64,000 bases of DNA. It comes from a virus (taxonomy: Duplodnaviria; Caudoviricetes). The notes beneath the pieces are model-generated. The model did not search any database and was not told the origin of the DNA. It was given only the letters and a program-made list of their open reading frames with translations. The stretch spans positions 1-64,000 of IMG/VR virus record IMGVR_UViG_3300026522_000022; one strand, given 5' to 3'. The position numbers and the translations under genes were made by a program. Shown here in pieces: positions 7,084 through 64,000 of this stretch. The first letter of the stretch is position 1; each line of letters starts with the position of its first letter.

Positions 7084-8184
7084 ATGCAACTTGACTACAC
7101 CTTAACCACTCCGCAAGAAAGAATTGAGTGTGTTAACAAATTAATTGCAGAGACTCCTGACGAAAAGCTTACCCCACAATATTTAAATTATATGTCCAAT
7201 TATATTTTATTTACACAAGATAAAAATCAAACTAAAAAGGAGAAAAAATCAGAATATCCTACATTAACAAAAAATCGTGAAGTAACAATTAATAAACGTC
7301 AGGTATCATTTGAAGAAATAGTCTCTAACTTAGAAAATGGCGAAGATGGTCTTTACGCCATGATTAATAATGATAAGAATCAAATTCTTGATCCTAAAGA
7401 CCCAATTACCCAAGAAGAAATCTCTACCATTCCCGGCATGCGGGGATTAATGGATACAATTAACACTCTTCAAAATCAATTTCAAAAAGCAAAGGGCTCC
7501 GCACGTTATATTTTAAAACGTTCTATTATTGAAACATGACAACAAGCCTATCTTCTTAAAGCATCCTGAAAAGGTGCGAACGGCAAGATGAAATCCTCTC
7601 AAATTAAAACTCTTGCCAAACTAGATTTAGAAGAGCACATAACCTTCAATGAAGAAGGAATGCCAGTGTCCTCCGCACTTCTTTCTCTTCTAAATCCAGA
7701 ACATATATCTTTTCTTCTCTGCTATTATCCTAAACTTAAAGAAGAATGTTGAGACGACCTTCAATGCGATATGCATTGACTTTTAGTGGACTTAGAAAAT
7801 CTTGCGGAACGCGTGCTTTTAGAAGATTATCCTCTTCTCTACGATCTAATTATCTGAAAAGTAGATGGTCTTACAAATGAACAAATTCAAATTGAAATGG
7901 ATCGCAAATATGGTGAATGACACTCTGAACAATATTATTCATCACTTTGGCGTAAACGTATCCCACGTTTACTCGCGGAACAAGCTCAAAAAGATTATTT
8001 AATTTGATATTATACAAATATAGAAAAAGGTTATTGGAAGAAATGCACAAAATGCGGGGAGATCAAATTAGGTCACCCGGCTTTCTTCTCCAAAAATTCA
8101 TCTAAAGATCATTTTTATAGTCAATGTAAAGATTGTAAAAATGGTAAAACAGATAAAAAGAAGAATAAAAATAAAAAGAAATAA
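7084..8184 (+). CDS. HTH plus C-terminal Zn-ribbon protein, putative regulator (code 4, 366 aa)
   Basis: Open through 7 in-frame TGA to TAA; ends KCTKCGEIK...QCKDCK; HTH-like WKVDGLTNEQIQIEM. Confidence 0.8.
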
Positions 8185-8191
8185 TCTTACT

Positions 8192-8218
8192 AAAGCAGCG
8201 CTTTTAGCGCTGCTTTTT
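8192..8218 (+). terminator. intrinsic terminator
   Basis: AAAGCAGCGC-TTTTA-GCGCTGCTTTTT. Confidence 0.75.
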
Positions 8219-8241
8219 CATATCCAAAAGGAGGTAAAAGT

Positions 8242-9435
8242 GTGACAGAAAGAATAACCTGTACAAAATGCGGGCGCTCGCGACCTGAAACTGAGTTTTT
8301 TAAACTAAAAGGCGGGCATCGCGACGATATATGTAAAGATTGTTTAACTATGTATATCGACAACCGCAAACCTGACACGTTTATGTGAATCTTAGAAAAA
8401 TTCGATGTACCCTACATTGAAAAGAAGTGAGTCCAACTCTGCAACGAAGTTTACAAAAAGAATCCCGGTTCCTTTGGCCCCAAGTCAGTCATAGGCCGCT
8501 ATCTACGAGCCATGAATATGGTACAATACAAACAATATACCTTCGCAGATACCGACAAACTAAATTATGCCGATAAAAAACAACAACAAGAATCAGAAGC
8601 CGCTCTAGCAGCCGCCCAAGAGAGAGAAGAAGAGTTAAGAGCTAAATTAGAACGTGGCGAAATTACTGAAGCACAATACAACACCTTATCTGCGGGGACC
8701 GCGTCGTCGAATACCACACCTGAGTTCGAGATACCCAACACTCCGCAATACACAATTGATGAGTCAGTTATCACAGATTCTCTCACAGACGAAGATATAC
8801 AATTCCTCATGTTAAAATGGGGCACAGTATATACTCCTTCTCAATGAGTAGCAATGGAAACGATGTATAAACGTTATGCTAACGAATATGAACTTAACGT
8901 AGACCGCGAAGAAGTCCTTAAAAAGATGTGCAAAACTTCTCTAAAGATGGACGAAGCTCTTGATACAGGCGATGTAAATGGTTATAAGAGCCTTGCAACC
9001 GTCTTTGACCAGCTCCGCAAATCAGGAAAGTTTACTGAAGCACAAAATAAGGAAGAAAAACAACGTTATCTTGACTCTATTGGAGAATTAATAGCTGTTT
9101 GTGAGCGTGAAGGTGGCCCAATTGAGCAATTCCCAGACCCAGACGAGTATCCGCAAGATAAAATAGATTTTACTTTGCGAGACCTCAAATCTTATACTTA
9201 TGGTTTAGTTACAAATGAACTTGGTCTTGGTGATTTAATTGAATCTTACATTGAAAAGCTTGAAAAAGCAGAAGAAGAAGGGGATGTAGATTTAGACAAA
9301 GGATTGATAACATCAGATGAAGAGCTTGCGGCGGACGCGTTGACGGATGACGAAGCTGAGGAATTTCAAGTGTTCTTAGAAAATGAGATAGAAAAGGATG
9401 CTGAGCGTCTCTTGGAAGAGTTAGGAGGTGAATAA
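8242..9435 (+). CDS. Zn-finger protein, probable terminase small subunit (code 4, 397 aa)
   Basis: GTG start after AAAGGAGG; CTKC...CKDC; 3 in-frame TGA; immediately upstream of the large terminase. Confidence 0.7.
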
Positions 9436-12400
9436 ATGTCTTTAGATGCGTTACTCTCTACTCAAAAGACCGCAGAACAAGAAGCTGAAATTACAAAAGA
9501 AGTTATTTTAAATAATATGGATGATTTACGACAGATTATATCCTATTGGAGAGTATATCCAGATAGATTTGTTGATTTTTTATGCAGTTTAAATCCAGAA
9601 AATACTTTTCACTTCTTTTTTTACCAAAGATTGTTCTTGCGGGCGGTTATGCGGCATAAATATGTCTTTGCAACATTCGTTCGTGCTTGGTCTAAGTCAT
9701 TTATGTCGGTTATGTCGCTTATGATTAAAGCAATTCTTTATCCTGGAGCTAAATTGTTCACTGTAGCTGGTGGTAAAGAGCAGTCTGCACAGATTCTTTC
9801 TGGTAAAGTAGATGAAATTTGTCGTTTAATTCCTGCTTTTGAAAAAGAAATTATATGAGACACCAGAGGAACTAGAGCTAGAACGTCACAAACAAAAGAT
9901 AGTGTTATTTATACATTTAAAAATGGTTCAACACTAGAAAACGTGGCTGCTACAGAAAAAACAAGAGGTAGGCGTTTCCAAGCAGGATTGATGGAAGAGT
10001 GCGTAGGTATTGACCAAGACATATTGAATGAAGTTATAATCCCTCAAGGTTTTCAAAACGAGTGGGGCCTAGCAGCGTAAGTTGTTAGTGAAAATCGCGT
10101 GAACGCAAGGAAAAGCGGTGTGTGATATTTATCATGCTAACGGTGAACGAAAGAATACCGTGCCAAGCTCTTTTAGAGAAGGCGTAGAGACTATGGGTGA
10201 TGAATGTAGCCCAGTAGGCCAGATTTTACCACTGGTCGAAGCGCGCGACTGCCAAATTGGTAGAAGAGATAGTCCAAGATATATAAAATATATTATGACT
10301 TTAAATGTTAACCGCCAGATTCCTGGCTGGGGCGCAGATGATAAGGAAGCATTAAATAAATCTCAAATTTTCGTAAACTTTTTGGGCAAAAGAGTAACAT
10401 TTTATTGTTAAAAATTTTAATAAATATAGAAGATAAAAACAAAAGAATGGAGTTTTTATGTACTATATTTATAAAATTGAAAATTTAGTTAATCATAAAA
10501 AATATATTGGTTTAACTAATCATATTATAAGAAGAAAATCTAGGCATTTTTGTGATTTAAAATATGGTAGACACGATAATCATTTTTTACAAAAAGAATA
10601 TGATATTTATGGGAAAAACAATTTTTCCTTTGAAATACTTTTCCAAGATAATGTGGATTCTCAGACTATATCGGATAAAGAAAAAGAATATATAAAATTA
10701 TACGATAGTTATTATAATGGGTATAATCAAAACGAAGGAGGAAATTTTGGTCCTTCTAATGGAGGAACAAAATTTACAAAATCTGACATTTTTACAATTT
10801 TAGCTGTATCTGAGTTTACTCATAGATCAGGACAAGTTTTAGCTGATATATATGATACCTCTAGAACAACAATTAGTAGAATTAATAAGGGTGTAAATCA
10901 TTGCCAGTATTACGAAGAATATCATAATCTTTCTTATGAAGATAGATATGAAATTTTTTATAATATTCAAAAAGATTTAGATATTGAAAAACAGATAATA
11001 AATTCTAATAAATTACAAAAAACAAGAAAATTAACTGATGAACAAGCTTTGTGAGTATTAGTGAATCATGATTATCATATAATGACACATGAAAAATTGG
11101 CCGAAAAGATAGGAGTAAAATCAACTTACACTTTACAGTGTATATGAGAAAATAAAACCTATAAAGATGTTAATTTACAATATAGTAAAATGACTGACTC
11201 TGAAAAACAAAAAATTGCGACGTTACTTAGTAATAAGTAAATGAAAACCTCTCTAATTGCTGGGAACTCCTATAAAATAGGACAATCAGCAGCGAAGCCT
11301 TGGAGACAAGGAACGTTCAACGACTAGTCGAAAGACGTAGGCCGCAAGCGATTGGCGGTCGAAACGGGAGGCCCCATTTTATGGGTGAAGATATAGTCTA
11401 CTCTATATGGTAATATATAGCAGTTCATAAGAGAACGCTTGTAAGTTAGCGCCTTACAAGGAATACAAGGAACAACTGCAGGATATAAAAATACATATTC
11501 TTATGAAAAACTAATTCAGCTTCTTTGTATGTCGGTAGCCCGTCCTAAAGATGCTATTGTTCTTGGTGGTTCTTGAAGAGTTCCTGTTATTGAAAAACTT
11601 CTTGATAAAAATTTTGTTAAAGAGCTTAAATTAGATGGTACATTTAACGAAGCATCATTTGAACGTGAATATGAATCAAAATGGACTGGTGATATTGAAT
11701 CTGCGTTCTTTGAATCATCTAAGTTTGATAAAAATAGAATTATTAATCTCCCAGAATATAAATATAGCAATAAAACTTCTAAAGAAGGCTATTATATCAT
11801 GGGTGTTGACGTAGGTCGTTTTGGGTGTAGCACTGAAGTTTGCATTATAAAAGTTACACCTGCGGCGTCTGGCGCGATGTTGAAACGTCTGGTTAATATT
11901 TATTCATTTGATGAAGAGCACTTTGGTATGCAGGCTATTAAAATTAAGCGTTTATTTAATCAATATAAATGCAGAGTGGCTGTTATCGACGGTAATGGCC
12001 TTGGCGCTGGTTTAGTCGATATGTTGACAATGGATACTACAGATCCAGACACGGGCGAAGTATTGTTTAACTGGGGTGTTTATAATGATGAAGATAGAAT
12101 TTATAAACACATGGAAACAGAAAATACAATTCACAATGCAATGTACATTATGAAAGCTAATCAAACTTTGAACTCTGAAATGTATGCTTATTGTCAATCT
12201 CAAATGAGCGCAGGCCGCATTAAATTCTTAGTTGATGAAAATATTGCAAAGAATAAACTCCTTTCCCAAGAGCAAGGTAAGAAAATGAGTGCGGTAAAGC
12301 GTGCGGAGTACCTGCAACCGTATGTGCAAACCTCTATCCTCAAAGACCAAATGTTAAATTTGATTCAAGAAAATGATGGCGCGCATATTATTTTAAAACA

Positions 12401-12548
12401 AGCTTCAAAGAAAATCAAGAAGGATAAATTTTCTGCTCTAATTTATGGTTTATATTATTGTAAGCTGCAAGAAGATAAGCGCAGCCGCAGAACAAAAATT
12501 AATCCCGCTGATTTAATGTTATACAGTAAAAAAATTGGGGTAAGATAG
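9436..12548 (+). CDS. terL: terminase large subunit, spliced: exons 9436-10044, 10298-10374, 11471-12548 (code 4)
   Basis: Walker A-like RAWSKSF, Walker B-like GLMEE, coupling motif FVTTAG rebuilt across the intron 2 junction, nuclease GVDVG and KKDKFSA; in-frame TGA in IIWDT and GGSWRVP. Confidence 0.9.
10045..10297 (+). mobile_element. group I intron (253 nt, no ORF) in terL
   Basis: 5' exon ends in U (CCCU), intron ends in G; IGS GAGUGGGG pairs with both exons; P/Q AACGGTGAA/AATACCGTG, R GTAGAGACTA, S AAGAGATAGTCC; splicing restores VIIP-TLNV. Confidence 0.9.
10384..10420 (+). promoter_or_regulatory. putative phage late-promoter motif GGGCAAA-N24-TTTTAA
   Basis: Same spacing recurs at 12538, 34290 and 54099. 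Confidence 0.6.
10458..11240 (+). CDS. intron-encoded GIY-YIG homing endonuclease (code 4, 260 aa)
   Basis: YIYKIENLVNHKKYIG...R...H...E...GYN; 2 in-frame TGA, ends TAA. Confidence 0.88.
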
Positions 12549-12608: not shown

Positions 12609-12965
12609 ATGTTAGCATCAGCTATGGAAGTTAAAATTCATAATATTTTAACAGATTATGATATTCCTTTTGAAGAAGAATATACGTTTGATGATTTAAT
12701 TGCGTCAAGCGGTAGACATTTAAGGTTCGACTTCGCTGTCTTTGCGGAGGATGGTTCTCTAGATTTTTTGATAGAGGCTCAAGGGCGACAACACTATACT
12801 AGCGTAAGTAAATTTGGTGGGAAACGTGGTGTCAGCAGACAGCGATATAATGATACACAGAAGAGAAAATACTGCTTAGATCATAATATAAAATTAATTA
12901 CCATACCTTATTATGATGAACCTAAAATAACGTATGAGTATATTATGAAGGCGGCAGGTTATTAA
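12609..12965 (+). CDS. Vsr/DUF559-like PD-(D/E)xK endonuclease
   Basis: LRFDF...IEAQGRQHY...DTQKRKYC; between terL and portal. Confidence 0.8.
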   Translation: MLASAMEVKIHNILTDYDIPFEEEYTFDDLIASSGRHLRFDFAVFAEDGSLDFLIEAQGRQHYTSVSKFGGKRGVSRQRYNDTQKRKYCLDHNIKLITIPYYDEPKITYEYIMKAAGY

Positions 12966-12976
12966 GGAGGTGAGCG

Positions 12977-14536
12977 GTGGATACCGCACAAGACTTTAAA
13001 TTAACTGCGCAATCAGAGTCCCCGCACGCTTCTAGGGATTTTAATAAAATTAAAATCGGTAAAACTACTTTATCTAATGATGTATTTTTTGATATAGATT
13101 ATAAGTATGATAGACACCGTGCACGTCCTTTTAGACGTGCGGATGTTATGCGGGCGCTAGCTGAACAAGATGTTCAATCTTTGAGAAATATCTCCCAAAG
13201 ATATTTTTCTATGAATGGTATTTATATGCGCCTTTGCAGATACATCGCATATCTATATCGCTATGATTGGACGATTACTCCAATAGTCTATGATGAAAAA
13301 ATTAAACCAGAGAAAGTTATTGAAGGTTGGTATAAAGCTTCCAATCTCTTGGATAATTGCCGTCTTAGAAAGAACTTTGGGGAAATTGCTCTTAAAGTAG
13401 TTAAAAATGGATGTTATTATGGTTATAAAGTAGAACAAAAAGAAGCTGCTTATCTTCAAGAATTGCATCCAGACTACTGCCGCAGTCGTTATAAGATTAA
13501 CGGCAAGCCAATTGTAGAATTTAACATTAAATATTTTGATGATAAATTCGCTGATGCAGATTATAAAATTAGAGTATTAAAATTGTTCCCAGCAGAATTT
13601 AGAAAAGCGTATCTCTCTTATAAGAGAGGAACGCTTAGAAAAGATTTTAATGGGGATGACAATGGATGGTTTGTTTTAGACCCTGAAAAAACTGTTAAAT
13701 TTAATCTTAGTAATACAGATGTACCTTTGTTTGTTGCTGTTATTCCTAAACTAATGGATTTAGAGGATGCTCAGGATCTTGATAAAAAGCGTATGGAACA
13801 ACAATTATTACGTTTAGTTATTCAAGAAATGCCTTTAGATAAAAACGGTGAATCAATTTTTGATATTCCTGAAATTCAAGCATTTCATAACAATGCGGTC
13901 GAAATGGTTGGAGACGCAGTCGGCATCAGTGTTTTAACAACACTTGCTGATGTGAGTGTCGAAGACCTTTCAGATAATGGTAATATGAGTTCTGCAGATC
14001 AACTTGAAAAAGTTGAACGTACCGTATACAATGAAGCTGGTGTTTCTCAAAAGCAATTTAATACAGATGGTAACATTGCTCTTGAAAAGTCTATTGCTAA
14101 TGACGAAGCAACAATGACAGATTTATTGTTACAGTTTGAAGAGTATGCGGAAAGCTTACTCAAACCATTTAATAAAAATACAAAGCGTTTAAAGTATAAA
14201 GTAACAATGTTACCAACTACTATTTATAATTATAAAGATTTATCTAAGACTTATAAAGAACAAACGCAAATTGGTTTCTCAAAACTTTTACCACAAGTTG
14301 CTCTTGGACAATCTCAAAGCACTGTTATGGCAACTGCATATTTTGAGAATGAACTTTTACATTTGGAAGAACTCTTTATTCCACCGCAAATGTCTTCTAC
14401 TATGAGTGGAAATCAATTAAAGAACAAAGTTGAAGATGGAAACAGTGAAGCGCCTACCGCGGAAGGTGGTAGACCAGAACTTCCAGACGATGAAAAATCA
14501 GAAAAAACTATTCAAAATAAAGAATCTGCGAGTTAG
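12977..14536 (+). CDS. portal protein
   Basis: 519 aa after terminase; C-terminal GGRPEL; synteny. Confidence 0.8.
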   Translation: MDTAQDFKLTAQSESPHASRDFNKIKIGKTTLSNDVFFDIDYKYDRHRARPFRRADVMRALAEQDVQSLRNISQRYFSMNGIYMRLCRYIAYLYRYDWTITPIVYDEKIKPEKVIEGWYKASNLLDNCRLRKNFGEIALKVVKNGCYYGYKVEQKEAAYLQELHPDYCRSRYKINGKPIVEFNIKYFDDKFADADYKIRVLKLFPAEFRKAYLSYKRGTLRKDFNGDDNGWFVLDPEKTVKFNLSNTDVPLFVAVIPKLMDLEDAQDLDKKRMEQQLLRLVIQEMPLDKNGESIFDIPEIQAFHNNAVEMVGDAVGISVLTTLADVSVEDLSDNGNMSSADQLEKVERTVYNEAGVSQKQFNTDGNIALEKSIANDEATMTDLLLQFEEYAESLLKPFNKNTKRLKYKVTMLPTTIYNYKDLSKTYKEQTQIGFSKLLPQVALGQSQSTVMATAYFENELLHLEELFIPPQMSSTMSGNQLKNKVEDGNSEAPTAEGGRPELPDDEKSEKTIQNKESAS

Positions 14537-14547
14537 GAGAGGATTGT

Positions 14548-15933
14548 ATGGCTTTAAAAAATATTTCTGAAGTTAATGCAATTCAAGGGCCGCAGTTTAT
14601 TAATTTAGAACCTTTGGATGTTAATCCTCTCATGTCTAAATGTGAAATTAAAGTATTTTATCTTGGACATAATCGTAATGGTTCTTATATTGATCGTGCG
14701 ACCGCTGAAAATATGGCTAAAACATTGCGGGGGACACCAATTGTTGCCGCATGGAATGACCAAAAGGAAGATTTTGGTGATCATGGTCATATAATGCATA
14801 TTGAAGATGGAGAACTTACATTTTCTTGTAAGACGGTTCCTTATGGATTTGTTTCTCCTGATGCCGACGTTTGGTTTCAAAATTTTACAGATATAGATGA
14901 ATTTGATAACCGCGTTGAGCGTACTTATTTAATGACAACAGGCTATTTATGGTCTGGTCAGTTTGAAGAACTCACAAAGGTGATTAATGAAGGTCAACCG
15001 CAATCAATGGAACTTGATGAAAAAACTTTAGATGGACATTGGGCAATGGATAATAATCTCGGGGTTGAGTTTTTCATTATTAATGACGCAGTTTTTAGTA
15101 AGCTGTGCATTCTTGGGGATGACGTAGAACCTTGCTTTGAAGGTAGTGCTGTTACATCTCCAGAGGTTAGCAAGGAATTCTCTACAAGGAAAGAATTCGA
15201 GCAAACCTTGTTTACGATGATGAATGAATTAAAAGAAGCGTTACAAAGCAAAGGAGGGTCGAATATGCCTGACGAGTTTGCAGAGCAAACAGAAATTGTT
15301 GATGAATCTACGGCCGAAGCTGAGGCAACTGAATTTGCTGCTGAAGAAGTAGTAGAAGAGGCTGCAACTGAAGAAGCTGTTGATTATACTAATGCGGACG
15401 GCGTTGCTGACGATTCTTCCGACGAACCCGAGGGTGAAACTGAATTCGTTAAAGATGACGACAAGGACGATTCTGACGACGATGATGATGATCCCGACGA
15501 TGAGGATGACGAAGATGACGATGACAAGAAGCCAACAAATCACTCACTAGAGGAATTTGAAGCTATGGAGAGCGAACTTTCTTCCTTACGCGCAGAGGTT
15601 GAAGAGTTACGTAAATTCAAGCTAGGCATCGAGAATCAGCAAAAGGATGCATTGATTAACTCATATCATATGCTTTCTGATGAAGATAAAGCAGATGTTA
15701 TTGAGCACAAATCAGAGTATAGTTTAGAAGAAATTGAATCTAAACTCGCTGTCATCTATGTCAAAAAGAATGTAGACTTTAACTCTTTAACTGGTAAAGC
15801 TGAAGATGATATTAATTTTGAGGCTGAACCCGTAAAGGAAGAAGATCCAAGCCTAACATTCTCTCTAGATGATGAAGTTGCGGGGTTCGTACCAAGTATG
15901 GTACAGGCACTCCGTCAAACAGTAGGTAAGTAA
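14548..15933 (+). CDS. prohead protease/scaffold
   Basis: HNRNGS, QSMEL, LCILGDDVEPCFEGS, then an acidic coiled-coil tail; between portal and capsid. Confidence 0.75.
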   Translation: MALKNISEVNAIQGPQFINLEPLDVNPLMSKCEIKVFYLGHNRNGSYIDRATAENMAKTLRGTPIVAAWNDQKEDFGDHGHIMHIEDGELTFSCKTVPYGFVSPDADVWFQNFTDIDEFDNRVERTYLMTTGYLWSGQFEELTKVINEGQPQSMELDEKTLDGHWAMDNNLGVEFFIINDAVFSKLCILGDDVEPCFEGSAVTSPEVSKEFSTRKEFEQTLFTMMNELKEALQSKGGSNMPDEFAEQTEIVDESTAEAEATEFAAEEVVEEAATEEAVDYTNADGVADDSSDEPEGETEFVKDDDKDDSDDDDDDPDDEDDEDDDDKKPTNHSLEEFEAMESELSSLRAEVEELRKFKLGIENQQKDALINSYHMLSDEDKADVIEHKSEYSLEEIESKLAVIYVKKNVDFNSLTGKAEDDINFEAEPVKEEDPSLTFSLDDEVAGFVPSMVQALRQTVGK

Positions 15934-15956
15934 ATTTAAAGGAGGAAAGTGCTGAT

Positions 15957-16451
15957 ATGGCAATTACCATTACACGCGAAGGGTATGGTCAGGTAGAGCC
16001 TAACCACCTTTCAGCTCCTCGCGATGGTCGCGTCTATGCGCAGCTTCCCGCCGCCGAGGGCATTAAGGTCCTTGAAAATGGTATGTTTGTAAAGTATGAC
16101 TACGCTGCTGGCGAGGTCAACTTTGACGGGGACGGCGCTTGGATGCTCGTTTACAACGAGGAAAAGCTTTATGATGAACGTCACCAGATGCACAAAGACT
16201 GGGCACAGAAGGTTGAGGATTCCTATGACGGTAAGATTTATCCTCGTGTCTTTGGCATTGTAGCTGGTGATATTTTTACAACTAATATGTTCGCACAGAA
16301 CACTGAACTTGAAGTTGGTGACGATGTTACCCCTGGCGATGACGGTATTCTCGCTGCTGGTAGCAACGGCGATGTTGTTTTCCGTGTTGTTAAGGAATAC
16401 ACATTACCTGATGGTCAGCCTGCCGTTAAGTTACAGTGCATCAAGGCTTAA
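15957..16451 (+). CDS. capsid decoration/minor head protein
   Basis: 164 aa directly before the major capsid gene; strongly biased codon usage. Confidence 0.7.
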   Translation: MAITITREGYGQVEPNHLSAPRDGRVYAQLPAAEGIKVLENGMFVKYDYAAGEVNFDGDGAWMLVYNEEKLYDERHQMHKDWAQKVEDSYDGKIYPRVFGIVAGDIFTTNMFAQNTELEVGDDVTPGDDGILAAGSNGDVVFRVVKEYTLPDGQPAVKLQCIKA

Positions 16452-16471
16452 TTGAAGGAGGGAAGCATATA

Positions 16472-17566
16472 ATGGATTATAAAGATCTACGCGAACTAGC
16501 TCGCATTGCAGTTTCTGCTGATCCAAAGGCTCCAGTTGCTTACTCCTTTGGCGAAGAGAAATTTACCCTTGATCAGGTTAACGAAGCTCTTGCTACAGAG
16601 TTCCGTGCATTAGCTCCTGATTATCGTACATATAAGGAAAATCAGAACACAATTTTCCGTCTAATTGAAGAGTCAATTAATGAGGTTCTTCCTGCTCGCG
16701 TTGAGCAACAGTATATGCAGTTTGCTGAGGTTCGTCGAGTCGCTCAAGGTGATAAGGCCATCTTCCGTCAGCGCATTACTGAGGCTGCTAAGACTCGTGC
16801 TAAGAAGAATTTTGTTACTCGTGTTGGCCTTGCTGGTCGTTACGAGGTCTTCATGCTTGATGGTCGTGAGATGGAAGTTCAGACTGCTGCTATTGGTGGC
16901 GCTGCTCGTATCGGCTTCGAGGAGTTCCTTGATGGTCGTCTCCAGTTCTCCGATCTTACAAGTCTAGTTATTGAAGGCATGGACGAATACATCTATCGTG
17001 AGATTGCTAAGGCTCTTGAGGCCACTGTAAAGAATCTTCCTGCCGTTCAGCGTGCAGAGGTTGCTGGTTTCGATGAGGCTACAATGGATGAGCTCCTAGC
17101 TATCGGCGATGCTTATGGTCGTTCTGCTATTTATTGCACAGCTGAGTTTGCTGCTAAGATGCTCCCTGCTGAAGGTTGGGTATCTGACAACATGAAGGAC
17201 ACTCTCTGGGCCAATGGTATGCTTGGTAACTACAAGGGTCACCAAGTAATTATTCTTCCTCAGTCAATGGTTGATGAAACTAATACTGAAAAGGTTATTG
17301 ACCCCGCTCAGGCTTATATTATGCCCGTCGGCGCTGAGAAGCCTGTCAAGCTAGTCTTTGAGGGTGGCGCTTGTGTCCGCACAGTTGAGGATAATGATGA
17401 CTGGAGCACAGATTTCCAGACTTATCAGAAGTTTGGTATCGCTACATTCTTCACAAACTTTATGCTCAGCTATCGTAACACTGATCTCAAGAAGGATACA
17501 CGTTTACATAACCTTCCTGTCGATAACTCTAGCACTATTACTCCTACTGGTACAGTTACTCCATAG
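16472..17566 (+). CDS. major capsid protein
   Basis: MDYKDL... after RBS GGAGGG; about 364 aa, high-expression codon bias, followed by a terminator. Confidence 0.82.
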   Translation: MDYKDLRELARIAVSADPKAPVAYSFGEEKFTLDQVNEALATEFRALAPDYRTYKENQNTIFRLIEESINEVLPARVEQQYMQFAEVRRVAQGDKAIFRQRITEAAKTRAKKNFVTRVGLAGRYEVFMLDGREMEVQTAAIGGAARIGFEEFLDGRLQFSDLTSLVIEGMDEYIYREIAKALEATVKNLPAVQRAEVAGFDEATMDELLAIGDAYGRSAIYCTAEFAAKMLPAEGWVSDNMKDTLWANGMLGNYKGHQVIILPQSMVDETNTEKVIDPAQAYIMPVGAEKPVKLVFEGGACVRTVEDNDDWSTDFQTYQKFGIATFFTNFMLSYRNTDLKKDTRLHNLPVDNSSTITPTGTVTP

Positions 17567-17623
17567 GTAGATCAGTTGTTTCAGCCTAAAATCAACAAAG
17601 TGTCCGAACATTAATTTATTTCG

Positions 17624-17665
17624 AGGGGAGGGAAGGAAGTGCCTTTCCTCCCCTTTTTATTTTTT
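17624..17665 (+). terminator. intrinsic terminator after the capsid gene
   Basis: AGGGGAGGGAAGG...CCTTTCCTCCCCT plus T-tract. Confidence 0.8.
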
Positions 17666-17687
17666 AACGGAGATAAAAGGAGAAAAA

Positions 17688-18233
17688 ATGTTAGAAGATA
17701 AAGAATTAGTAGAAGTTCGTAATCTTGTAGATCATATGGTTGTTTATAAGATTGATGAATTAAATCGCAGGGTTGTTTTTAACCCATTTGAAACTAAAAA
17801 AGTGCCGGTTGATGAACTTAGACGTTTAAATTACCAACATGGCGGACAAATTCTTTTACATAATTATTTATGTATTTTAAATGACGAACTCCGTCAAGAG
17901 TTTGGTATTGATCCAACGATGGTAGAATATGATTGGACAATTAAAGACATTGATGCCGCACTTACATCTAGTCCTATTGACGAACTTTTAGATGCTCTAG
18001 AGTTCGGGCCTGAAGGTATTAAAAATATGCTTGTCGATAGGGCAGTACAATTGAAAATCCCCGATACCAATAGAAGAAAAGCAATTCAAGAAATTACTGG
18101 TGTCGATGTAAATAATATGATTAATTTTAAAGAACAAGCCGAGGCGATTGAAAATAAAAATGCGGCAGTTGCTCCGCATACTCGTCGCGCAAGCCAAAGT
18201 GTTACAGTTGGTGGAAGACGCGTCCGCCATTAA
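17688..18233 (+). CDS. hypothetical protein (post-capsid)
   Basis: 181 aa, RBS AAAGGAG. Confidence 0.8.
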   Translation: MLEDKELVEVRNLVDHMVVYKIDELNRRVVFNPFETKKVPVDELRRLNYQHGGQILLHNYLCILNDELRQEFGIDPTMVEYDWTIKDIDAALTSSPIDELLDALEFGPEGIKNMLVDRAVQLKIPDTNRRKAIQEITGVDVNNMINFKEQAEAIENKNAAVAPHTRRASQSVTVGGRRVRH

Positions 18234-21672: not shown

Positions 21673-22800
21673 ATGCGATTTGGTGTTCGCGAAATTTGCG
21701 ATGTTGTTTTCAAGCCACTAGCCGCTGTAGATATTGGAAACCAACACTTTGACGCTATGCAGCCTGTCCTTTACTTAGATACTGCTAAGACTTCTAGTTT
21801 AGAGGGCGCATCCACAACTGTATATGCTCAGGGTGGTAAAGGTAACCCACGTCTTATTGGTTGGGACGGTGAGAAAACTCTTACATTTACCGTTGAAGAT
21901 GCTCTTATGTCACCTTTAAGCTTCCATATGCTTTCTGGTGCGGGCGTTGTTAAGGGTAGTGGACAAGTTGGCGCAGAGGGTGCAAAACATATTTATGTCC
22001 ATCAGACTTATGATCTTGTTGTTCATAGTCAAACTACTGGTACTGGGGACGATGCCACTACAACTTTTTATGCAGAACTTCCATCTGAAACTCGTAATGG
22101 TGCTCGTTTAATAGCAACAGTTGAAGCTCCAATTTACGCAACTACTCTTGACAGTGCAGGTGCACAAAAACTTTCATTAAGTGCAATTGCTGCAGATGAA
22201 ATTAAAAAAGGTGCTAAGTGAAGTACAGCAGAAGCTGCTACTCCCGGAGAAAAGGGTCTTATTCCTCTTGCTGTTACCGACAATGTTTATTTCATTTTAG
22301 ATCACAAAGGCGATATTGCCAGTGCTGATAATTATACTGACGTTGAGCTTAAAGATGGCGATACTGTTCGTATTGATTGTTATGCTGCTTATGCAGATAA
22401 AGCACAAGAGCTTCAAATTGATGCTGAGACATTTGGCGGATATTATTACATTGAAGCTTCTACATTGTTCCGTGATGAAGCAACTGGTCAAGACTTCCCC
22501 GCTGAGTTTGTAATTCCTCGTGGTAAGATTCAGTCTAACTTCACTTTTACGATGGCTAACTCTGGTGATCCTAGTACATTTACTTTCACTATTGACGCTT
22601 TCCCAGCTTATACTAAGTTTGAGAAAGGAAAGAAAGTTATGGCTGCTTTGCAGATTATTGATCCTGAAGCAGCAGCTCACAACTATGCTGATCCTAATGT
22701 TTCTGGACACGGTGGTCGTTACGCCGATAGTACTGGTGCTATGGATAGCGATGCTTATTATGACGAAATTTACGACGAAAAGAGCGTATTTACTGACTAG
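21673..22800 (+). CDS. major tail (tube) protein (code 4, 375 aa)
   Basis: AQGGKGNPRLIGWD and FTMANSGDPSTFTFTID; single TGA at 22219; strong codon bias; terminator follows. Confidence 0.8.
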
Positions 22801-25440: not shown

Positions 25441-25563
25441 TTATTTTCTTTTATTTTCTTTTATATTAGTTAGGGTATATATTACTTTATTAAGTTAGAG
25501 ATAAAAGGAATTACGGTGAGACTCTTGGAGTTGTCACCAGTTCAACAAAGAAAGGTGAGAACA

Positions 25564-34400: not shown

Positions 34401-34416
34401 ATAAAGGAGAATGCGG

Positions 34417-40400: not shown

Positions 40401-41502
40401 TATTCGTGTTACCGCTTTAAATAATCGACTTAATATAAGCAGTGGATATGACGATGGTACTGTTGATTCTGGATTACAAGTAACTTATCAAACAACAAAT
40501 TCTACTAAATTAAATAATTTTATTTTAAATGAGAATAGTAAATTTGATGTATGTCGCACTATGCAATTTTTTACAAGAGGCAGATCAGGCAATGAACCAG
40601 GAAATGATGGAACTGGTATGCTTATGTCCGCAGAGAATACCAATGGAGGTATTCTTTTACGCACCACTGCTGCTGAACAATTTGATGGAAATTACAGCGG
40701 AATAGCTACCGCACCTGGAGTTGCTTCTTTGTTATTACGCCCAAGCGCAGGTAATAGCGATGCTCCTGGTGAATTTTATTTACAAGGTGGGCAAGCAACA
40801 AATGATCCAAATTCAAGATATAAAAATAACCTTACAAGAGTTTTTAGTTCTCATGAACAAACAAAAAGCGGTGGAGAAATAGTCCATCATTGAGATAAAG
40901 CTATGGTTATTATTGAGCCAAGATTAGATGTTAAAAGTGGTTCTACACCTGGTCCAATTGTTGCTGGATCATTAGAGCTTCAAAAACAAGGCACATCAAC
41001 TGGTGATATAAGTGCTGCTGGAAATGTAGGTGTTGCTGGAAATATAAATGCTGCTGGTAATATTCAAGCTACCGGTAAAGATAAATGAATTTGAGGAACA
41101 GCGCTATATGCCGGAGAAAAATCAGGTGATTGATATAAAGGAAAAATTTATGGCGACGGTTCTGAAATAAGTAATACTTGCAATGGCGGAGGCGCAACCC
41201 CTGGTGGGGGAGGAACTATAACATTAGGTTCTTCGGATGGAGTATCTATAACCATCCCAGAAATTTCTGTTGTTCACGGGAGACCCAGGTTTAGCACTGA
41301 TACAATAACTATAAGAGCGAGTGAACCCGATAGTGGAAAGTGAGCTACTCGAGAATGAGTAGGAGAAAACGCAGTTAGAAAAACAGAAGTCTGATCTGAG
41401 ACTACTTCATTCACATATAACGAACCAACAATGCAAGCAATATTAAATGACATTGCGGTCAAACTAGATTCGTTAAGAAATGCTTTAAATAGAGGTATAT
41501 AA
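34417..41502 (+). CDS. very large tail/baseplate protein (code 4, 2361 aa)
   Basis: Eleven same-frame track ORFs joined by TGA; LNSWDGN...LAPQIGAG motif; position after the tape measure gene. Confidence 0.8.
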
Positions 41503-45100: not shown

Positions 45101-45511
45101 TATTATTTAGATAAATCTGTTGATACAGAAAAAATACAAAAATTAAAATGAAATTCAATAGATGCGGAAAGTATTTCCGATACTTTTAATATCCGAATTA
45201 ATGGTCAACAATACAACCTTAAAAAAGATATTCAATATATTCCAACAGAAGATAGCTATGGGTATATACATCCTCAACAAATATCTAATCCTAAATTTAA
45301 TACGATTTATCGTTTTACAAAAAAAGTAGAGAATAACACACCGACAGAATTCTATTATCAAATTCATTATATAGATGGAAATTGATATCCTGTTGTTTTT
45401 CTAGAAGATGATAGCGTATTAGCCGCAGTTCCCGTCTATGGCTTAATAAACTATCATGGGAATCTGTTGAGTAGAAAAACTAAAAGCAATAGTGATAAGG
45501 AGACGTCATAG
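42104..45511 (+). CDS. large tail/baseplate protein (code 4, 1135 aa)
   Basis: Same-frame fragments; motifs DTLGGRYP and WEREFREELVKWLNDGEPKLYRS use TGA for W. Confidence 0.8.
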
Positions 45512-45513
45512 CA

Positions 45514-48500
45514 ATGCATAAACAGTATCCTTATTTGCAAGACAGTTATATCTATAAAACAGATTTAGAATGAGAAAATAGAAGTATTTTAAAAGATATT
45601 GACAATTTTAAAAATCAACGTCAATATGTCAAAATAACATTGCTAAATTGAGATGAAGAGCCCATCAAAGAAATCCAAGGAGAGATTTCTACGGGCTCTA
45701 TCTCAAAGACAGCCGATTCTCCCATCCGCCGCACAGCACAGTTGACTTGTGCGGTGGATGCTCATTCTTATTCTGTTGATAATGGAAAAGCTGATTTTGC
45801 GATTAATAAAAAAGTGTTCATTGAAATCGGAGTAAAGAATGAGACGCCGCACTATCAAGATTATCCTATCTTTTGATTTCCAGAAGGTGTTTTCTTCATA
45901 GGTTCATTTGCTATTAATGCTGGCTCTAATTCATCTACCACTATTACTCTTGGATTAAAAGATAAAATGGCTATGCTTAATGGCGATGTTGGAGGTACTC
46001 TTCCCGCAACAACAATTTTTGATTCAATGGATACTCAATTACCAGATGGAACTTATATAGAAAAAAAGGTTTTAATTTATAACATTATTCAAGAACTCGT
46101 TCATCATTATGGCGGAGAAGATTTAAGTCGTATAGTAATTGAAGGTGTACCTTTGCGTATTCGTCGTATTATGCAATGAACTGGAGATACTCCTTTATAT
46201 AAAATTACAACAGCAGAAAATTCTAACGCGGAAGTTGGCTCAGAAGAAGGATTCTATGAATTTACTCTAGAAGAGCCAGATAGTTCTGTTACTTATAATA
46301 AATATGAAAAAGGAGACGATGTTGGTTATATCATGGATGATTTTGTTATCGTCAATGATTTAACTGGCGCGCCAGGAGAATCTGTTACATCTATTCTTGA
46401 TAAAATTAAAAATATTATAGGTAATTATGAATATTTTTATGATGTTTTTGGTGTATTTCATTTTAGAGAAATAAAAAATTATTATGTTACAACGCAGGCC
46501 AGAACTTTATTAGATGAAATGGCTGAAAATGATTATTTAGTAGAGGTCAATAATAATAAAAGTATTTATACTTTTGATGATGAAAAATTGCTTACTTCTA
46601 TTTCAGTAACTCCGCAATATGAAAATATAAAAAATGACTATATTGTAGAGGGGAAAACTACTATAGGTGATAGCAATATTGTTTATCCTGTCCGTTATCA
46701 TCTTGCTATTGACGAAAAACCTAAGCTAATAGGTACAGATAATAGAGATACTATTAGAGCAATGGTTGATTGTACAAAAGAAATAGAAGATATGACTAAT
46801 CAATTAAATCAATTACTGACTAGTCGCGAAAATTCTAGTAAATCATTGACAGATATTTTATATAAAATTCAAATTAATAAAAATTCTATGTCCGATGATT
46901 TAAATACAATAAATACAAAAGACAAACTGTTATTAAAATATTTGCAAAATTATGCTGAAACCAATTGAAGCTATTCAGAACTGACAAAATCAAATAAATT
47001 GTTGTCAGAAGTATGGCTAGAAAAAACTTTTCCGCAAAATAATAATTTGACTTTAAGAGAATATTTAAACGCTTTACCAGAAAAAGAAAATGATGTAACT
47101 GAACAACTTAATAATATCGAAGAACTACAAAAAGCATTAGAAGAAAATCAAGACGTTTTAGAACATTTTACTGATAAAACGGTAGAAAATTTTACTGGCA
47201 ATAAAGATATTTTTAACAATATATCTGAAGTGTCAAAAACAGTAAATAATGCTAAAAGATATGCTGATATTAAAATAGGAGCTTGAGCGCTTAAGGAACA
47301 AGCTTTACAGCAACAGCAAGCCGCTAACAAAAATTCTTTTAATAGTTTTAAACAAAGCTGTATTGATTTATATGACTTTATCCAAAAGCTGCAAGAAAAT
47401 GTTAAAGACAAGAAAAAAATTCTAGTAGGGTCTGCGGAAAATGGTACATTAGAACAAAAGTGAAGAGTTAACAATTATGAATGTTTAGTCAATCGTTCTG
47501 TTAATGGTAAAATTTCTTTTTCTCATAATATTGATTATTTTGAGCAAGATGTTAGAGATGATGACACCTATACGATAACATCTAATAACGCTACAGTAAA
47601 AAAGATTTTACACATTACTGATGACAAATTCCTCTATAGCGATGGATTATTTTTTCAGTTCCTAGAACTATGAAAAGCATACCATGATATAGAAAAAAAT
47701 CAAGATTTAGCAAAAATTAATCAACTACAGAATCAAATTGCTAAATATAACGAACAGCAAGGAACTTTCCAATTTGTAAAAAATCCTAATCAGTCTAAAA
47801 AATATTATGGAGCTTATCCAACAGAAGAAACAAGTACAACCGCTGATAATTTTCAAGAAATGATTTTATACACGCATCCTAGGAATGGGGTTAATTGCGC
47901 GGCTTATGTAAAAGTTGTAGATAATTTGCCCGATGTTGGTAATTTTAATTTAATATACAAAGAAGGAAATACTTATTATTATTGAGACGGGCAAATGTAT
48001 AAAGAAGTTAAAGTTTTAGCGGCTTATGATAATGCGGCAGATGAAAACAAATATTATGCATATGATTGACGCACAAAATTATATCTTGATGGATTGAAAG
48101 GTGTTATTAATGGCACTGACCAAGGATATTATTTTGCAGAGCTTTCCGCATTCTGGCCGCAAGTTTATGATTTAACTGAGCAGAAATTCTTTGGAGAGAA
48201 AGAGGACAAATCAACTCATTTTAAAACTCTAACTTCAAGCGGAACATATTATTTAGACTTCTTAGATTCAATCTCTACTTCTTTTGGAGAATGAAGTGTT
48301 AAAAATATTGGGAGACGCTCAGATGTAATTGTAAAAGAAGAAATTAATTGCTTATTTCAGCCAGAAATTCCAAATGTAGTTATTTTACCCGCAAATTCTT
48401 TAGATTTAAGCGTAGCAAATCGTTCTTCGTCTGATACAATTTTTACTTATAATAATCGAGCATTAGAAAGTGATATGACTTTAGAAGAATTAAGAAACGA

Positions 48501-48807
48501 AGCTAAAATTAATTTTTATCCTTGGACGCAAGTTGATTCTTCTATTTATTCACAATTACTTACTGGTGGTTATAAGAATGGAGCTTTTGACCAAATTAAA
48601 TATGAACTATATTTACATACTAGATATCAAAAAGCTATATCTATGACTAGCATACCAGTATTTTATTTAGAGCCAAATAATAGAATTACAATTAACGATA
48701 CAACAACAAATACTTATGGAGATTTTGTTGTACAAAGTATTAATTTAACATTAGGGCCTGGTGCAAATATGTCAACTACATGCAATGAAATTGCAGAAAG
48801 ATTTTAA
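45514..48807 (+). CDS. tail hub/baseplate-like protein (code 4, 1097 aa)
   Basis: LLNWDEEPIKEIQG, IFWFPEGVF, C-terminal PVFYLEPNNRI; joined by TGA. Confidence 0.8.
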
Positions 48808-57888: not shown

Positions 57889-59154
57889 ATGGCGAATTTA
57901 CCATATATTGACAAGATAAGCGTTAATGGTACATTATATGATATACATGACGCTCGTCTTGAAAATGTTAATTTCTTAAATTTCGCAGGAGTTAGTGATG
58001 AAACTGATTGACCTGTAGATAGAACTGCACTAACTTCAACAGAAATTGATACTTATAGTGTCGGCGATGTTGTTATTAATACAACAACTAATAAAGAATT
58101 TGTTGTTATTGAAAAAGGCGACCCTGCCGCGAAATACTGGGCAGAATTTGGTGATGCTAGTAATTTAGGTGGAACTAGTTTACAATATGTAACTGCACAA
58201 GGTAGTTATACACCTGTTGGACAAATTAGCAGTTCAACTGCTGTAGTTACTGCCACTGGTGCATATACACCTTCTGGTAGTGTAACAACTTCTGCAACCA
58301 CTCTTACTTCTAATGGTAATTATACTCCTTCTGGATCAATTGCTTTAACTCAGCCAACAGATGGAACAAGTATCTCATTAACTGGTTCTTACACACCTGC
58401 GGGTACCAATACAATTACACAATCTACTGATGGTACTGCTATTTCAGTAACAGGTACATATAGTAAAGCTACTGGTTTTAATGGAACAACTGCTACAATT
58501 ACTTCAACTGGAAGTTATACTCCAAGTGGCAGTATTAGTGTTGTACTTCCAACCGCTTCAATTGGTAAAGTAACTGCGGTAAGCACTGCATCTAAAAATG
58601 TTGTTTCTAGTGTTAGCACTGGCACAGTGGCAACTGTTAATACATCAGTAACAAACAATACCTTAGTTTTAGGCACAACAACTGCTGTTACAAGAGTAAC
58701 AACAGCAGCTCAAACTATAGTTACTGGTGTTACAACTGCCGCACAAACGGTGGCTACAGGTCAACCTACAACTAAAACATTTACAGGTGATGCTGCTACA
58801 CTTTCCGTTACAACTAGCTACAAACCTGCTGGTTCAATTACAAATACAGACACAACAATTACTTCTAGTGGTAAGTTAAAGGTAATATTCTCTGGTACTG
58901 CTGCTACTATTACTACTACTGGAAAACTTAAAGCTGCCTTTACTGGTACAGCTGCCACAATTAGTGTTACAGGTAGTTATACTAAGCCTACTGGATTTAG
59001 TGGAAATGCTGCTACTATTTCTGTCACTGGTAATTATAACAATGCTACTGGATTTAATGGCATTGCTGGTACAGTTACAGTTGTTTCTGCTAGAAGATTT
59101 GCGGCTGAAGGCGCAGATGACACTATCACTCCCGCACAAGGAAGTGATTTCTAA
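57889..59154 (+). CDS. Thr/Ser/Gly-rich repeat fibre protein (code 4, 421 aa)
   Basis: Repeated (T)GSYTPxGS and FxGxAATIS units; one TGA. Confidence 0.8.
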
Positions 59155-59762
59155 TGGCTATAGCTGAACCAACTGCTGATAATATAACTAAATATTGAGT
59201 TACAGATACTCAATTACAACTATTGGCGAATGCAATTAGAAAGGAGGGCGGAACAACCGCCCTCCTTACTTATCCAGATGGTTTTGTAAGTGCTATTAAT
59301 AGTTTAGATCATGTTAAAACTGAAAGTTTAAATGTAGCATGGCCTGCGGAATATAATAACATATATTGGACTACGCAAACTGAATTACAAAATATCGCAA
59401 ATGCTATTAGAAGCAAAAATTCAAGCTCTGAAACTTTAACATTTTTAGAAGATTTTGTGGATAATTTGGTTATTGTTAATGAAACTTCAGAAAAATTATA
59501 TCATATTTATCCTGGAAATGGAAATGAAATTTTTGCGGCTATAGACTGGCCAAATCAAGGTTTTAATAAATTTATAAATGATATCCCAGCTGGAACATGA
59601 TTTACACCCTTAAATGCTTCTGGTGATGCTGTGTATCGTGGAACAATAACATTTTTTAAAAAATCAACTCAAGAGCAAGTTTCTTTACCACGACGTACCT
59701 TACAACAAGCTTTCTGGATTTATCAAATGCCAGATTATGATATAATTGTATATATTTCTTAA
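59154..59762 (+). CDS. hypothetical protein with duplicated YWxT..L..IANAIR domain (code 4, 202 aa)
   Basis: Internal repeat; 2 TGA; ends TAA. Confidence 0.75.
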
Positions 59763-61371: not shown

Positions 61372-61633
61372 CAAATGGACTAGCCGCAAGTTTTGGATTT
61401 CTGTTGCAGCCTTTCTTGCCTCAATTGCGACAAGTATTTCTGGTTTTGCCGTCGCAAATAGTACAATTGCAACAGTAGGTATTGTTTGCGGCGTTATAGC
61501 GGCCGCAATTTACGCAGCTGCTGAAGCTTATGTAGATGGACAATCTATTTCTACTACTACAACTCAAAAGGTAATTACTGCTACTAGTGAATCAAAAGAT
61601 GTTGTTCAATCTGCTTTAATTGAACAAAAATAA
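61358..61633 (+). CDS. holin
   Basis: KWTSRKFW followed by two TM segments and YAAAEAYVD; near the endolysin. Confidence 0.8.
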   Translation: MIMSSKWTSRKFWISVAAFLASIATSISGFAVANSTIATVGIVCGVIAAAIYAAAEAYVDGQSISTTTTQKVITATSESKDVVQSALIEQK

Positions 61634-62186: not shown

Positions 62187-62198
62187 GGAGTTAAACAT

Positions 62199-63182
62199 AT
62201 GACAAATTGTGCAAACGTAGCCGCGACTATCCATGCAAACATGTGTAATGATGCTGGATTTGGATATTCAATGGGCAACCGATGGGGTGGTGGCGCGACT
62301 CGTGTCTGAACAATTGACAATAAAAAATATGCAGTAACAGCCGGAGACTATGACTGTTCTTCTTCTTGTATTACCGCTTGAAGAAAGGCATTAGAAGGTA
62401 CTGCTTATGAAGGTACTTTGAAAAATGCTACTTATACTGGTAATATTCAAAAAGTGTTTGTCAACAGTGGATTATTTGAAGTAAAACCTTTATCATTCAT
62501 TGCACAGCGTGGAGATTTATATCTTTCCACAGGACACCATGTTGCTATGTGTCAAACCCAAACACCTGATATGTTAAGTGAATTTTCAATTAATGAAAAA
62601 GGTGGAGCTTACGGCGGACAACCAGGTGATCAAACTGGAAAAGAAGCATCTATACATGGATACTATAATTATCCATGAGGATGCATCATTCATTATAACG
62701 GAAAAGCTGATACGGTGCAGCCCGCGCCAGCTCCGCAAAAACCTTTAGGATATAGCACAAAACTTTATCAAAGTAATAATACGCCAGCGCAGCAATTTAC
62801 GATTGAAAAAGTCGATAATAATTATGTTGCATTAAAAAATATTGAGCGTAATATGTATTTAGATGTTAAAAATGGGGCTAAAGCAGATCATACTCCTGTT
62901 CGAGTATGAGAAGGTAAAAAAACATTAGCACAACAATGAAAATTAATTGAAATTAAAACAGATAAAGCTATTCTTTATGAATTCGAACCAAAATGTGCAC
63001 CGGGTATGCGCTTAGACGCTATACAAGGTGGTACTGTTAATAAAACGGGTCTGCAAATTCATCCTAAAAATGGGACTGCCGCACAAAGATGGCAGTTTAT
63101 TGATAGTGGTGACGGAATTTATAGAATTGCAAGTTCAAAATCAGGGTTAATGATTGACGCAGGAGCAGGTGTACAACCATAA
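62199..63182 (+). CDS. endolysin: NlpC/P60-CHAP-like Cys-His peptidase plus ricin-B-type lectin repeats (code 4, 327 aa)
   Basis: YDCSSS, RGDLYL...HHVAM, GDQTGKE; AQQF/AQQW/AQRW repeats with YLDV/RLDA; 5 TGA. Confidence 0.85.
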
Positions 63183-63190
63183 ACTTTCTT

Positions 63191-63231
63191 AAAAAAATAA
63201 AGGGCGCTCACCGGAGCGCCCTTATTTTTTT
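63191..63231. terminator. bidirectional intrinsic terminator
   Basis: A-tract AAGGGCGCTC...GAGCGCCCTT T-tract between convergent genes. Confidence 0.85.
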
Positions 63232-63233
63232 GT

Positions 63234-63725
63234 TTAAAAAGCAGACATTTTTTTATTTTTTTCTACTAATCCCGCAAGACCTATACAAATTGCATCACAT
63301 TCATCTTCTGTTGCTTCAACACTAAACTTTTGCCGCACTAATTCTTGTGCGGCCTTTTTTTGTTCTGCACGAACTTTTCCAAAATTAATTTTATATTTTT
63401 CTTTTAAAATACTTCTTCAATGACTAGGCGATAAAATACTAAATTTATGTTCAGTATTATAACATCATATCATAATTGTGGCTTGGACATAAGCTAATTT
63501 TTTATAAGTTTCTTTATTTTGTTGAGCTTGTATATCTTCAAAAAATACATTATCAAAATTAAATTCTTCTTCAATCAAAGATAATCTTTGCATTAAAGTT
63601 GATAATCTTTGTTCTATTGGTTTATTAGCGGGGATTGTAAAATGACCATGACCTATTAGTTTAGAATTTTCAAATACAGCTCATCCTGTAGTTTGTAGAG
63701 CTTGATCTAAAGCTAAATAAATCAT
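63234..63725 (-). CDS. ruvC: RuvC-like Holliday junction resolvase (code 4, 163 aa)
   Basis: ALDQALQTTGWAVF, FFEDIQ, SPSHWRS, DECDAICIG; 3 TGA; absent from the track. Confidence 0.85.
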
Positions 63726-63727
63726 AA

Positions 63728-64000
63728 TTAATCTCCCGTACTGCCAAAACCACCCCTACTATTTGTTCCAAGAGAAGAAACAGTGGTAAATTTAATGTTA
63801 GGTTGGCGCTGTTGAATCCTAAATTGACAAAGTCGAGTATGCGCAGGGATAATTACATCCCTTGTAGCATATGCGGGAAAGGCTCAAATATCATCGTCTC
63901 CGCAATAACTATTATCAATAATTCCGATACTATTAGTTTGAAGAACTCCCCATTTCTTAAAAGTAGAACTGCGGGGTGCAATAATAGCTTCAAAACCTTG
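63728..64000 (-). CDS. dut: dUTPase, 3' part (code 4)
   Basis: [22 protein letters not shown] motifs; TGA in DDIW. Confidence 0.92.

Follow-up and report, generated by a model that had tools for sequence, protein, structure and literature searches.

What does TGA mean in this virus genome, and which party to the infection sets its meaning? The stretch analysed here, referred to below as the window, is the first 64 kb of IMG/VR record IMGVR_UViG_3300026522_000022, a linear record of 130,610 bp with a CheckV completeness of about 90%. From 7078 to 63182 its plus strand carries a block of late genes, comprising sigma-like, terminase, portal, capsid, tail tube, tape measure, giant tail protein, holin-candidate and endolysin genes; past 63.2 kb the minus strand encodes RuvC and the replication genes DnaE, DnaB, primase, ligase and gyrase A and B. 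Under the standard code (table 11) the late block is fragmented. The best explanation, which as a whole we hold with high confidence, is that the record derives from a large, uncultured siphovirus-type phage (G+C of about 0.33) in whose genes TGA is a sense codon for Trp and never a terminator, with decoding supplied by the phage itself in a walled host that uses the standard code.

An earlier note on this DNA had described same-frame open reading frame (ORF) fragments parted by TGA and had proposed a comparison of tables 4 and 11; the fragments do join, and the comparison favors TGA as sense. Table 4 turns the block into long ORFs, among them four of 2924, 2363, 1135 and 1097 aa. Over the whole genome, stop-to-stop ORF cover reaches 0.89 if TGA is read as sense, compared with 0.69 under the standard code and 0.76 if TAG is read through instead, and the longest ORF grows from 828 to 2938 aa, remaining at 828 aa when TAG is made sense. 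The four largest frames, listed here, contain TGA in abundance and neither TAA nor TAG at any position.

25516..34290, plus strand: tape measure protein, 2924 aa, with 19 TGA and 11 TGG; matches PHROG tape-measure families at E down to 2.5e-52
34411..41502, plus strand: giant tail or distal-tail protein, 2363 aa, with 25 TGA and 9 TGG; open only with TGA as sense
42104..48807, plus strand: a pair of large tail or fibre proteins, one of 1135 aa with 13 TGA and one of 1097 aa with 11 TGA

In the two alternative frames of these genes, TAA and TAG together occur at 0.064-0.080 per codon, which puts the probability of such openness arising by chance at 10^-36 to 10^-85 per gene (10^-83 for the tape measure gene). 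The gene set contains 256 in-frame TGA codons genome-wide; 140 of them fall, counting both strands, in ORFs that start between 7078 and 63234, and 135 of these belong to the plus-strand late block. A few of the codons counted lie within introns or in a minus-strand ORF (61286-61609) that was wrongly chosen. That every reconstructed gene ends in TAA (106 genes) or TAG (33 genes), which had been offered as support, is a product of the reconstruction itself and is not evidence. The conclusion drawn from it, that TGA does not terminate, stands on other grounds, because TGA is evenly spread along genes, with a flat distribution over deciles, and is not enriched towards ORF ends (13 observed within 15 codons of one, where about 14 were expected). 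In addition, genes with a TGA stop in standard-code sister phages terminate in TAA or TAG here.

The identity of the encoded residue was read from alignments to relatives in which every TGA was masked as X. Eighty related IMG/VR loci (L006-L085) were taken around the portal gene, together with five whole relatives (G001-G005), of which G002 (134,212 bp, complete, with terminal repeats) and G005 are clearly standard-code. Among the roughly 1,260 cells opposite TGA in the 80 loci, 455 hold TGG, 134 TGA, 223 Tyr and 96 Phe; Gly fills 14 and Cys 15, and TAA or TAG never occurs. The phage's TGG codons face the same profile of residues. Of the TGA columns, 44 of 118 are Trp in G002 and 25 of 92 in G005, the two standard-code sisters, against a background of 0.2-1.7% for Trp opposite other residues, while Gly occupies 3 of 118 in G002, where the phage's own Gly is 56% conserved. 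TGA columns in the distal tail genes were compared with the five whole relatives only, because IMG/VR pattern searches found no relative of the 2363-aa tail protein and one partial relative of the 54768-56288 protein. Four genes provide further comparisons, at TGA positions that fall in a repeat, in a motif or in columns covered by a large set of homologues.

59154..59762, plus strand: internal-repeat protein, with Tyr-TGA at 59196 facing Tyr-TGG at 59367; the repeat is recovered by BLASTP at E 1e-8
62199..63182, plus strand: endolysin with ELLD domain (PF25309, E 5e-20) and ricin-type lectin (PF14200, E 1e-21), with 5 TGA and 2 TGG
63234..63725, minus strand: RuvC-like resolvase (Pfam RuvC, E 2.2e-5), with 3 TGA
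11529..12548, plus strand: C-terminal (nuclease) piece of the large terminase (PHROG 2 and 5909), with TGA in a GGS-W-RVP motif

The internal controls named in the earlier note are all found as described. Besides the repeat, they include the QxW units of the endolysin, where TGA at 62937 and TGG at 63090 both fall within the RicinB_lectin_2 match, and motif positions in RuvC (G-TGA-AV and SH-TGA-R) and terminase (GGS-TGA-RVP). Across 120 endolysin homologues, Trp fills TGA column 61 in all 120 sequences, column 160 in 115 and column 37 in 84; all three RuvC TGA columns are Trp in G002; and the terminase column is Trp in G001 and G002 and, among the 80 loci, Trp in 35, TGA in 15 and Tyr in 17. 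The alignments to loci, whole relatives and endolysins, together with the motif columns, thus show, as far as sequence comparison can, that TGA stands for Trp and not for Gly, Cys or selenocysteine (Sec). At these columns relatives have TGG, TGA or an aromatic residue and only very rarely Gly, and homologues run through the TGA positions rather than ending at them, in line with the Trp assignment first proposed.

How could a phage read TGA as Trp? The earlier note had suggested looking in the rest of the genome for a cognate tRNA, a release factor 1 (RF1), a tryptophanyl-tRNA synthetase (TrpRS) or an antagonist of release factor 2 (RF2), and the outcome was mixed: the tRNA is there, outside the window and split by an intron, and the other three were not recovered. 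ARAGORN finds 10 tRNAs at 106-116 kb, none with a UCA anticodon. The predicted tRNA(UCA) gene of the phage lies at genome positions 115,149-115,469, about 51 kb past the window end. Its 5' exon ends at 115,181, after U34, the first anticodon position, its 3' exon restarts at 115,374, and the 192 nt in between match the Rfam group I intron (41.9 bits, E 4e-9). When the exons are joined in silico, ARAGORN calls a 96-nt tRNA(tca), and the predicted spliced molecule has a 7-bp acceptor stem, A1-U72, G73, an encoded CCA end and a long variable arm with the loop CUCCAAA; A1-U72 and G73 are also seen in bacterial tRNA-Trp. The close relative G001 has the same split gene, TGA-recoded G003 and G004 have an unsplit tRNA(tca), and no tRNA(UCA) was found in standard-code G002 and G005, in which TGA terminates 14 of 135 and 26 of 138 genes, respectively. 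Searches of the genome for RF-1 family and class Ib synthetase (TrpRS) domains found none, and we infer that Trp is charged by the host TrpRS. An intron-split suppressor escapes standard tRNA finders, so phages of this kind may be scored as recoded without a suppressor. The tRNA region also contains a full-length ROOL RNA (Rfam RF03087, 347.6 bits; genome 112,384-112,985) and an eleventh tRNA, called by Rfam (40.8 bits) at 107,098-107,168 and missed by ARAGORN even at a relaxed threshold.

How often TGA is used depends on the module. TGA makes up 0.66 of TGA plus TGG codons in the tail-lysis block and 0.62 in the sigma-terminase block, against 0.33 in the replication block (tail-lysis versus replication, Fisher p 2.5e-9). 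DnaE, DnaB, primase, ligase and GyrB contain no TGA at all, and the TGA-rich genes of the replication block are three GIY-YIG homing endonucleases (GIY-YIG genes carry 2-6 TGA), a Dam methylase and RuvC. The late strand has a TGA-free module of its own.

12609..18233, plus strand: head block, with 0 TGA and 13 TGG (Fisher versus tail block, p 2e-6)

Two alternatives concern TGA itself. It might be a real stop, the genes being decayed, the assembly or reads erroneous, or read-through occurring at a low level without reassignment; the fragmented look under table 11 is what such stops would produce, and nothing further recommends the idea. We consider it extremely improbable, given frames of 1,097-2,924 codons free of TAA and TAG, TGA positions that relatives either have in common with the phage or swap for TGG, the same pattern in 28 related contigs from independent metagenomes, and a gene with 25 TGA from which rare read-through could give no product. 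Alternatively, TGA could be a sense codon of another kind, either Gly (code 25, as in Absconditabacteria/Gracilibacteria and their phages) or Sec. Code-25 phages do exist, and the long variable arm of the tRNA(UCA), which earns it the ARAGORN label 'SeC', would fit the latter reading. The scarcity of Gly and Cys opposite TGA in the loci, set against the abundance of TGG, the near absence of Gly from the G002 columns, which sets this genome apart from code-25 phages, the invariance of Trp at several TGA columns in homologues and the Trp-like acceptor stem (7 bp, A1-U72, G73) nevertheless leave this assignment with next to no probability, and Sec is hard to reconcile with 256 TGA codons distributed across most genes.

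The remaining alternative concerns the host, which could itself use code 4, with UGA read as Trp and no RF2 as in Mycoplasmatales, so that the phage would follow the code and impose nothing. In Mycoplasmatales and Entomoplasmatales and their phages UGA is likewise Trp, read by tRNA-Trp(UCA), and both the low G+C of the phage and the presence of related contigs in bins labelled Bacilli (two) and Mollicutes could be taken to point that way. Yet a host lacking RF2 goes with TGA use in all genes, whereas here TGA use follows modules, the long replication genes and the head block being wholly without it; the phage bears its own tRNA(UCA); and sister phages with the same gene order either keep TGA stops under the standard code or recode TAG. 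The endolysin speaks against a code-4 host as well, belonging to a family tied to Gram-positive wall-binding modules: its homologues carry GH25, Amidase_2, ChW, CW_7, choline-binding or SLH domains. A short way upstream of it lie the genes of two small putative membrane proteins.

61102-61371 and 61358-61633, plus strand: two overlapping holin candidates (89 aa with 1 TGA, and 91 aa), each with two hydrophobic segments, as judged from the ORF list and translations only

Related contigs occur in GTDB metagenome-assembled genome (MAG) bins of Bacilli (two), Lachnospiraceae, Mollicutes, Gastranaerophilales and Methanobrevibacter, which are not reliable host calls and were used only to ask about RF2. 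RF2 is encoded in 5 of 5 MAG bins with related phage contigs. The gene rpoB was found in 3 of 5, has no internal TGA in one Bacilli bin and the Mollicutes bin, that is, in two of the three Bacilli/Mollicutes bins, and was not found in the second Bacilli bin. Taken together, these data make a code-4 host very unlikely. A walled host that presumably uses the standard code remains the best reading: the endolysin and its wall-binding homologues, the upstream two-transmembrane holin candidates and the Bacillota phage kin (the nearest phages with cultured hosts, by portal, infect Enterococcus, Bacillus, Brevibacillus and Staphylococcus) back the walled host put forward in the earlier note, and a peptidoglycan-walled member of the Bacillota is most likely. 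The accompanying proposal that the phage imposes the code itself is likewise strengthened by the phage tRNA(UCA), by sisters that lack the tRNA and use TGA stops, and by the TGA-free replication and head genes, with the host presumed to use the standard code.

Several observations weigh against TGA-Trp recoding directed by the phage, or at least against its simplest form. The record is incomplete (about 90%). TGA columns are less conserved than TGG columns, with Trp at 37% and 61% of them, respectively, in G002. The intron match in the tRNA(UCA) gene falls below the Rfam gathering score. No RF1, TrpRS or RF2 antagonist by which competition with host RF2 might be handled was found in the genome. 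Finally, the replication block contains 50 TGA and the right arm 64, so that the rule by which early genes keep the standard code is only partial, and the head block is TGA-free, the capsid gene included, where a pure timing model predicts otherwise.

What might recoding of TGA to Trp do for the phage? Since the suppressor tRNA gene is interrupted after U34, a working tRNA would form only after transcription and splicing. Before that point, the TGA-free genes (DnaE, DnaB, primase, ligase, GyrB and the head block) would be translatable, whereas translation of the TGA-rich genes would be blocked; these include the sigma-like regulator, terminase, tape measure and tail fibres, as well as the TGA-containing holin candidate, endolysin, RuvC, Dam methylase and the GIY-YIG homing endonucleases. 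Because the two sets would differ in this way, recoding could be a translational gate that holds back late and lysis functions, and we infer a role in timing. If the product of the first gene below drives late transcription, late transcription itself would await the suppressor tRNA.

7078..8184, plus strand: sigma-factor-like late regulator candidate, with 7 TGA and 2 TGG; matches PHROG 5767 'sigma factor' at E 2.8e-40
8242..9435, plus strand: conserved gene, function unassigned, with 3 TGA; matches PHROG 3314 at E 7.6e-48

The sigma-factor label of 7078-8184 comes from PHROG 5767 only, no Pfam or PDB sequence match having been found; homologues in standard-code G002 and G005 have no internal stop, and that in G001 contains 8 TGA. 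In the neighboring 8242..9435 gene, TGA provides 0.64 of Trp codons across TGA-recoded relatives. The sequence around sense TGA was considered as well: the following base is poorer in C and T than after TGG (p 1.6e-6), a bias mostly general to NNA codons, and T directly follows sense TGA in 11.7% of cases versus 18.9% after other NNA codons (p 0.016), a weak deficit. The claim that sense TGA avoids strong termination contexts was dropped, since little beyond this T deficit is left once the general NNA pattern is taken into account.

A second pattern extends beyond timing and involves two genes for virion proteins.

16436-17566, plus strand: major capsid protein; the predicted model has the HK97 fold, with Foldseek probability 1.00 to phage capsids and encapsulins
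21673..22800, plus strand: tail tube (major tail) protein, with 1 TGA and 1 TGG; PHROG 2729, with tail tube proteins as best Foldseek matches (E 1e-7, probability 1.00)

Across loci L006-L085, in the region corresponding to window positions 15957-18233 and 21673-22800, the recoded stop is avoided. In TGA-recoded relatives, TGA accounts for 1 of 68 Trp codons in the capsid gene, 0 of 26 and 0 of 15 in its two small neighbors and 1 of 15 in the tail tube gene, against shares of 0.35-0.64 in adjacent genes. In TAG-recoded relatives, TAG accounts for 0.01-0.04 of Gln-type codons in the same four genes and for 0.14-0.42 in adjacent ones. These sequences are not phylogenetically independent, and the pattern is therefore a lead rather than a result. 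The chances are evenly balanced that decoding of the recoded stop carries a cost or is incomplete, probably through competition by host RF2 (RF1 in TAG lineages), and that the codon has been purged from the most abundant virion proteins; the convergent avoidance suggests incomplete suppression and a codon choice that follows expression level. If so, recoding would tune the expression level of individual genes in addition to timing the late ones. Avoidance in capsid and tail-tube genes of both recoded lineages is possibly new, a literature search having found no paper that states it, and the question that it perhaps opens is why these genes are free of the recoded codon in both.

How stable, then, is the code within the clade? 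Relatives were classed by counts of in-frame stops inside alignments and placed on a tree of the portal gene.

12977-14536, plus strand: portal; PHROG 2739, E 5.7e-87

Among the 80 portal relatives, 32 have the standard code, 28 have recoded TGA and 19 have recoded TAG; no locus uses both recoded stops heavily. The codes are interleaved on the tree (FastTree), and parsimony requires at least 12 code changes, versus a mean of 37 after shuffling. A clade with such mixed codes is well suited to studying the speed at which phages change code.

The phenomenon itself, in what is apparently the same lineage, has been published already, which makes the finding real but ordinary and the genome one more well-documented case. 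The earlier note had mentioned that TGA-Trp recoded gut phages are described, and the description matches that of Borges et al. (bioRxiv 10.1101/2021.08.26.457843). The Agate phages of that study form a lineage of about 127 kb from the gut of cattle and other animals, with a predicted Firmicutes host; TGA, read as Trp, is concentrated in structural and lysis genes, recoding spares the replication machinery, which is standard-code, and favors the homing endonuclease of a group I intron, a suppressor tRNA(UCA) is present, very close relatives are standard-code and the clade also has TAG-recoded members (bioRxiv 10.1101/2021.08.26.457843). Recoding of late and lysis genes, standard-code replication genes, a recoded endonuclease, a tRNA(UCA) and both standard-code and TAG-recoded relatives are all found here. 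The likeness to Agate is one of description only, the size of 130.6 kb at about 90% completeness lying within about 127-154 kb, and the suppressor tRNA gene differs in being split by a group I intron. The study of Borges et al. is said to have appeared later in Nature Microbiology.

Other recoding systems resemble this one in part. The nearest named GenBank genome is phAss-1 (portal 37% identical; Babkin et al. 2023), of the proposed Phassvirus, a gut phage of about 136 kb with recoded virion genes, suppressor tRNAs, no dedicated synthetase and a predicted Clostridia/Bacillota host (PMC10607447). It is only distantly related, with 70% nucleotide identity over 4% of the head block, and it recodes TAG, with three tRNA(CUA) genes, rather than TGA. 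In TGA-recoded Jade and zeta crAss-like phages, too, TGA in late genes is decoded as Trp by a tRNA(UCA) of the phage; the crAss-like phages, however, are unrelated podovirus-like phages of Bacteroidota, and two Jade phages have RF1 and TrpRS in a code-change operon (bioRxiv 10.1101/2021.08.26.457843), neither of which was found here. For code-4 genomes, the rate of suppressor detection was only 35% in the work of Borges et al. (bioRxiv 10.1101/2021.08.26.457843).

The large terminase gene appears, from sequence matches and comparison with G001, to contain two group I introns.

9436..10043, plus strand: large terminase, first coding piece (end approximate), with 1 TGA; aligns to residues 1-203 of the uninterrupted G001 terminase frame
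10044..10295, plus strand: candidate group I intron without an ORF (27 bits to Rfam RF00028, E 2e-4, under the gathering score); exactly the segment missing from G001
10403..11528, plus strand: second terminase intron region (limits approximate), with a group I core at 11190-11420 (RF00028, 93.4 bits); a segment missing from G001
10458-11240, plus strand: GIY-YIG homing endonuclease ORF inside the second intron (Pfam GIY-YIG, E 1e-6), with 2 TGA

The endonuclease insertion is present in G002. A table 11 annotation of the genome loses the terminase gene together with the tape measure, tail fibre and endolysin genes; Pfam matched almost none of the structural genes, and PHROGs and fold searches were required to name them.

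Two observations at either side of the late block complete the description. Window positions 1-7084 have a G+C of 0.41-0.43 (about 0.33 elsewhere), negative GC skew and short ORFs only under either code; short segments of them, such as 4814-4895 (87% identical), are repeated in the final 8 kb of the genome, and patches are 67-90% identical to G001. On the minus strand beyond the window, at genome positions 70,454-75,200, the Pol III alpha (DnaE) homologue is encoded by two adjacent ORFs of 773 aa (PHP, NTPase, finger) and 454 aa (HHH_6), its counterpart in G002 being a single frame of 1277 aa.

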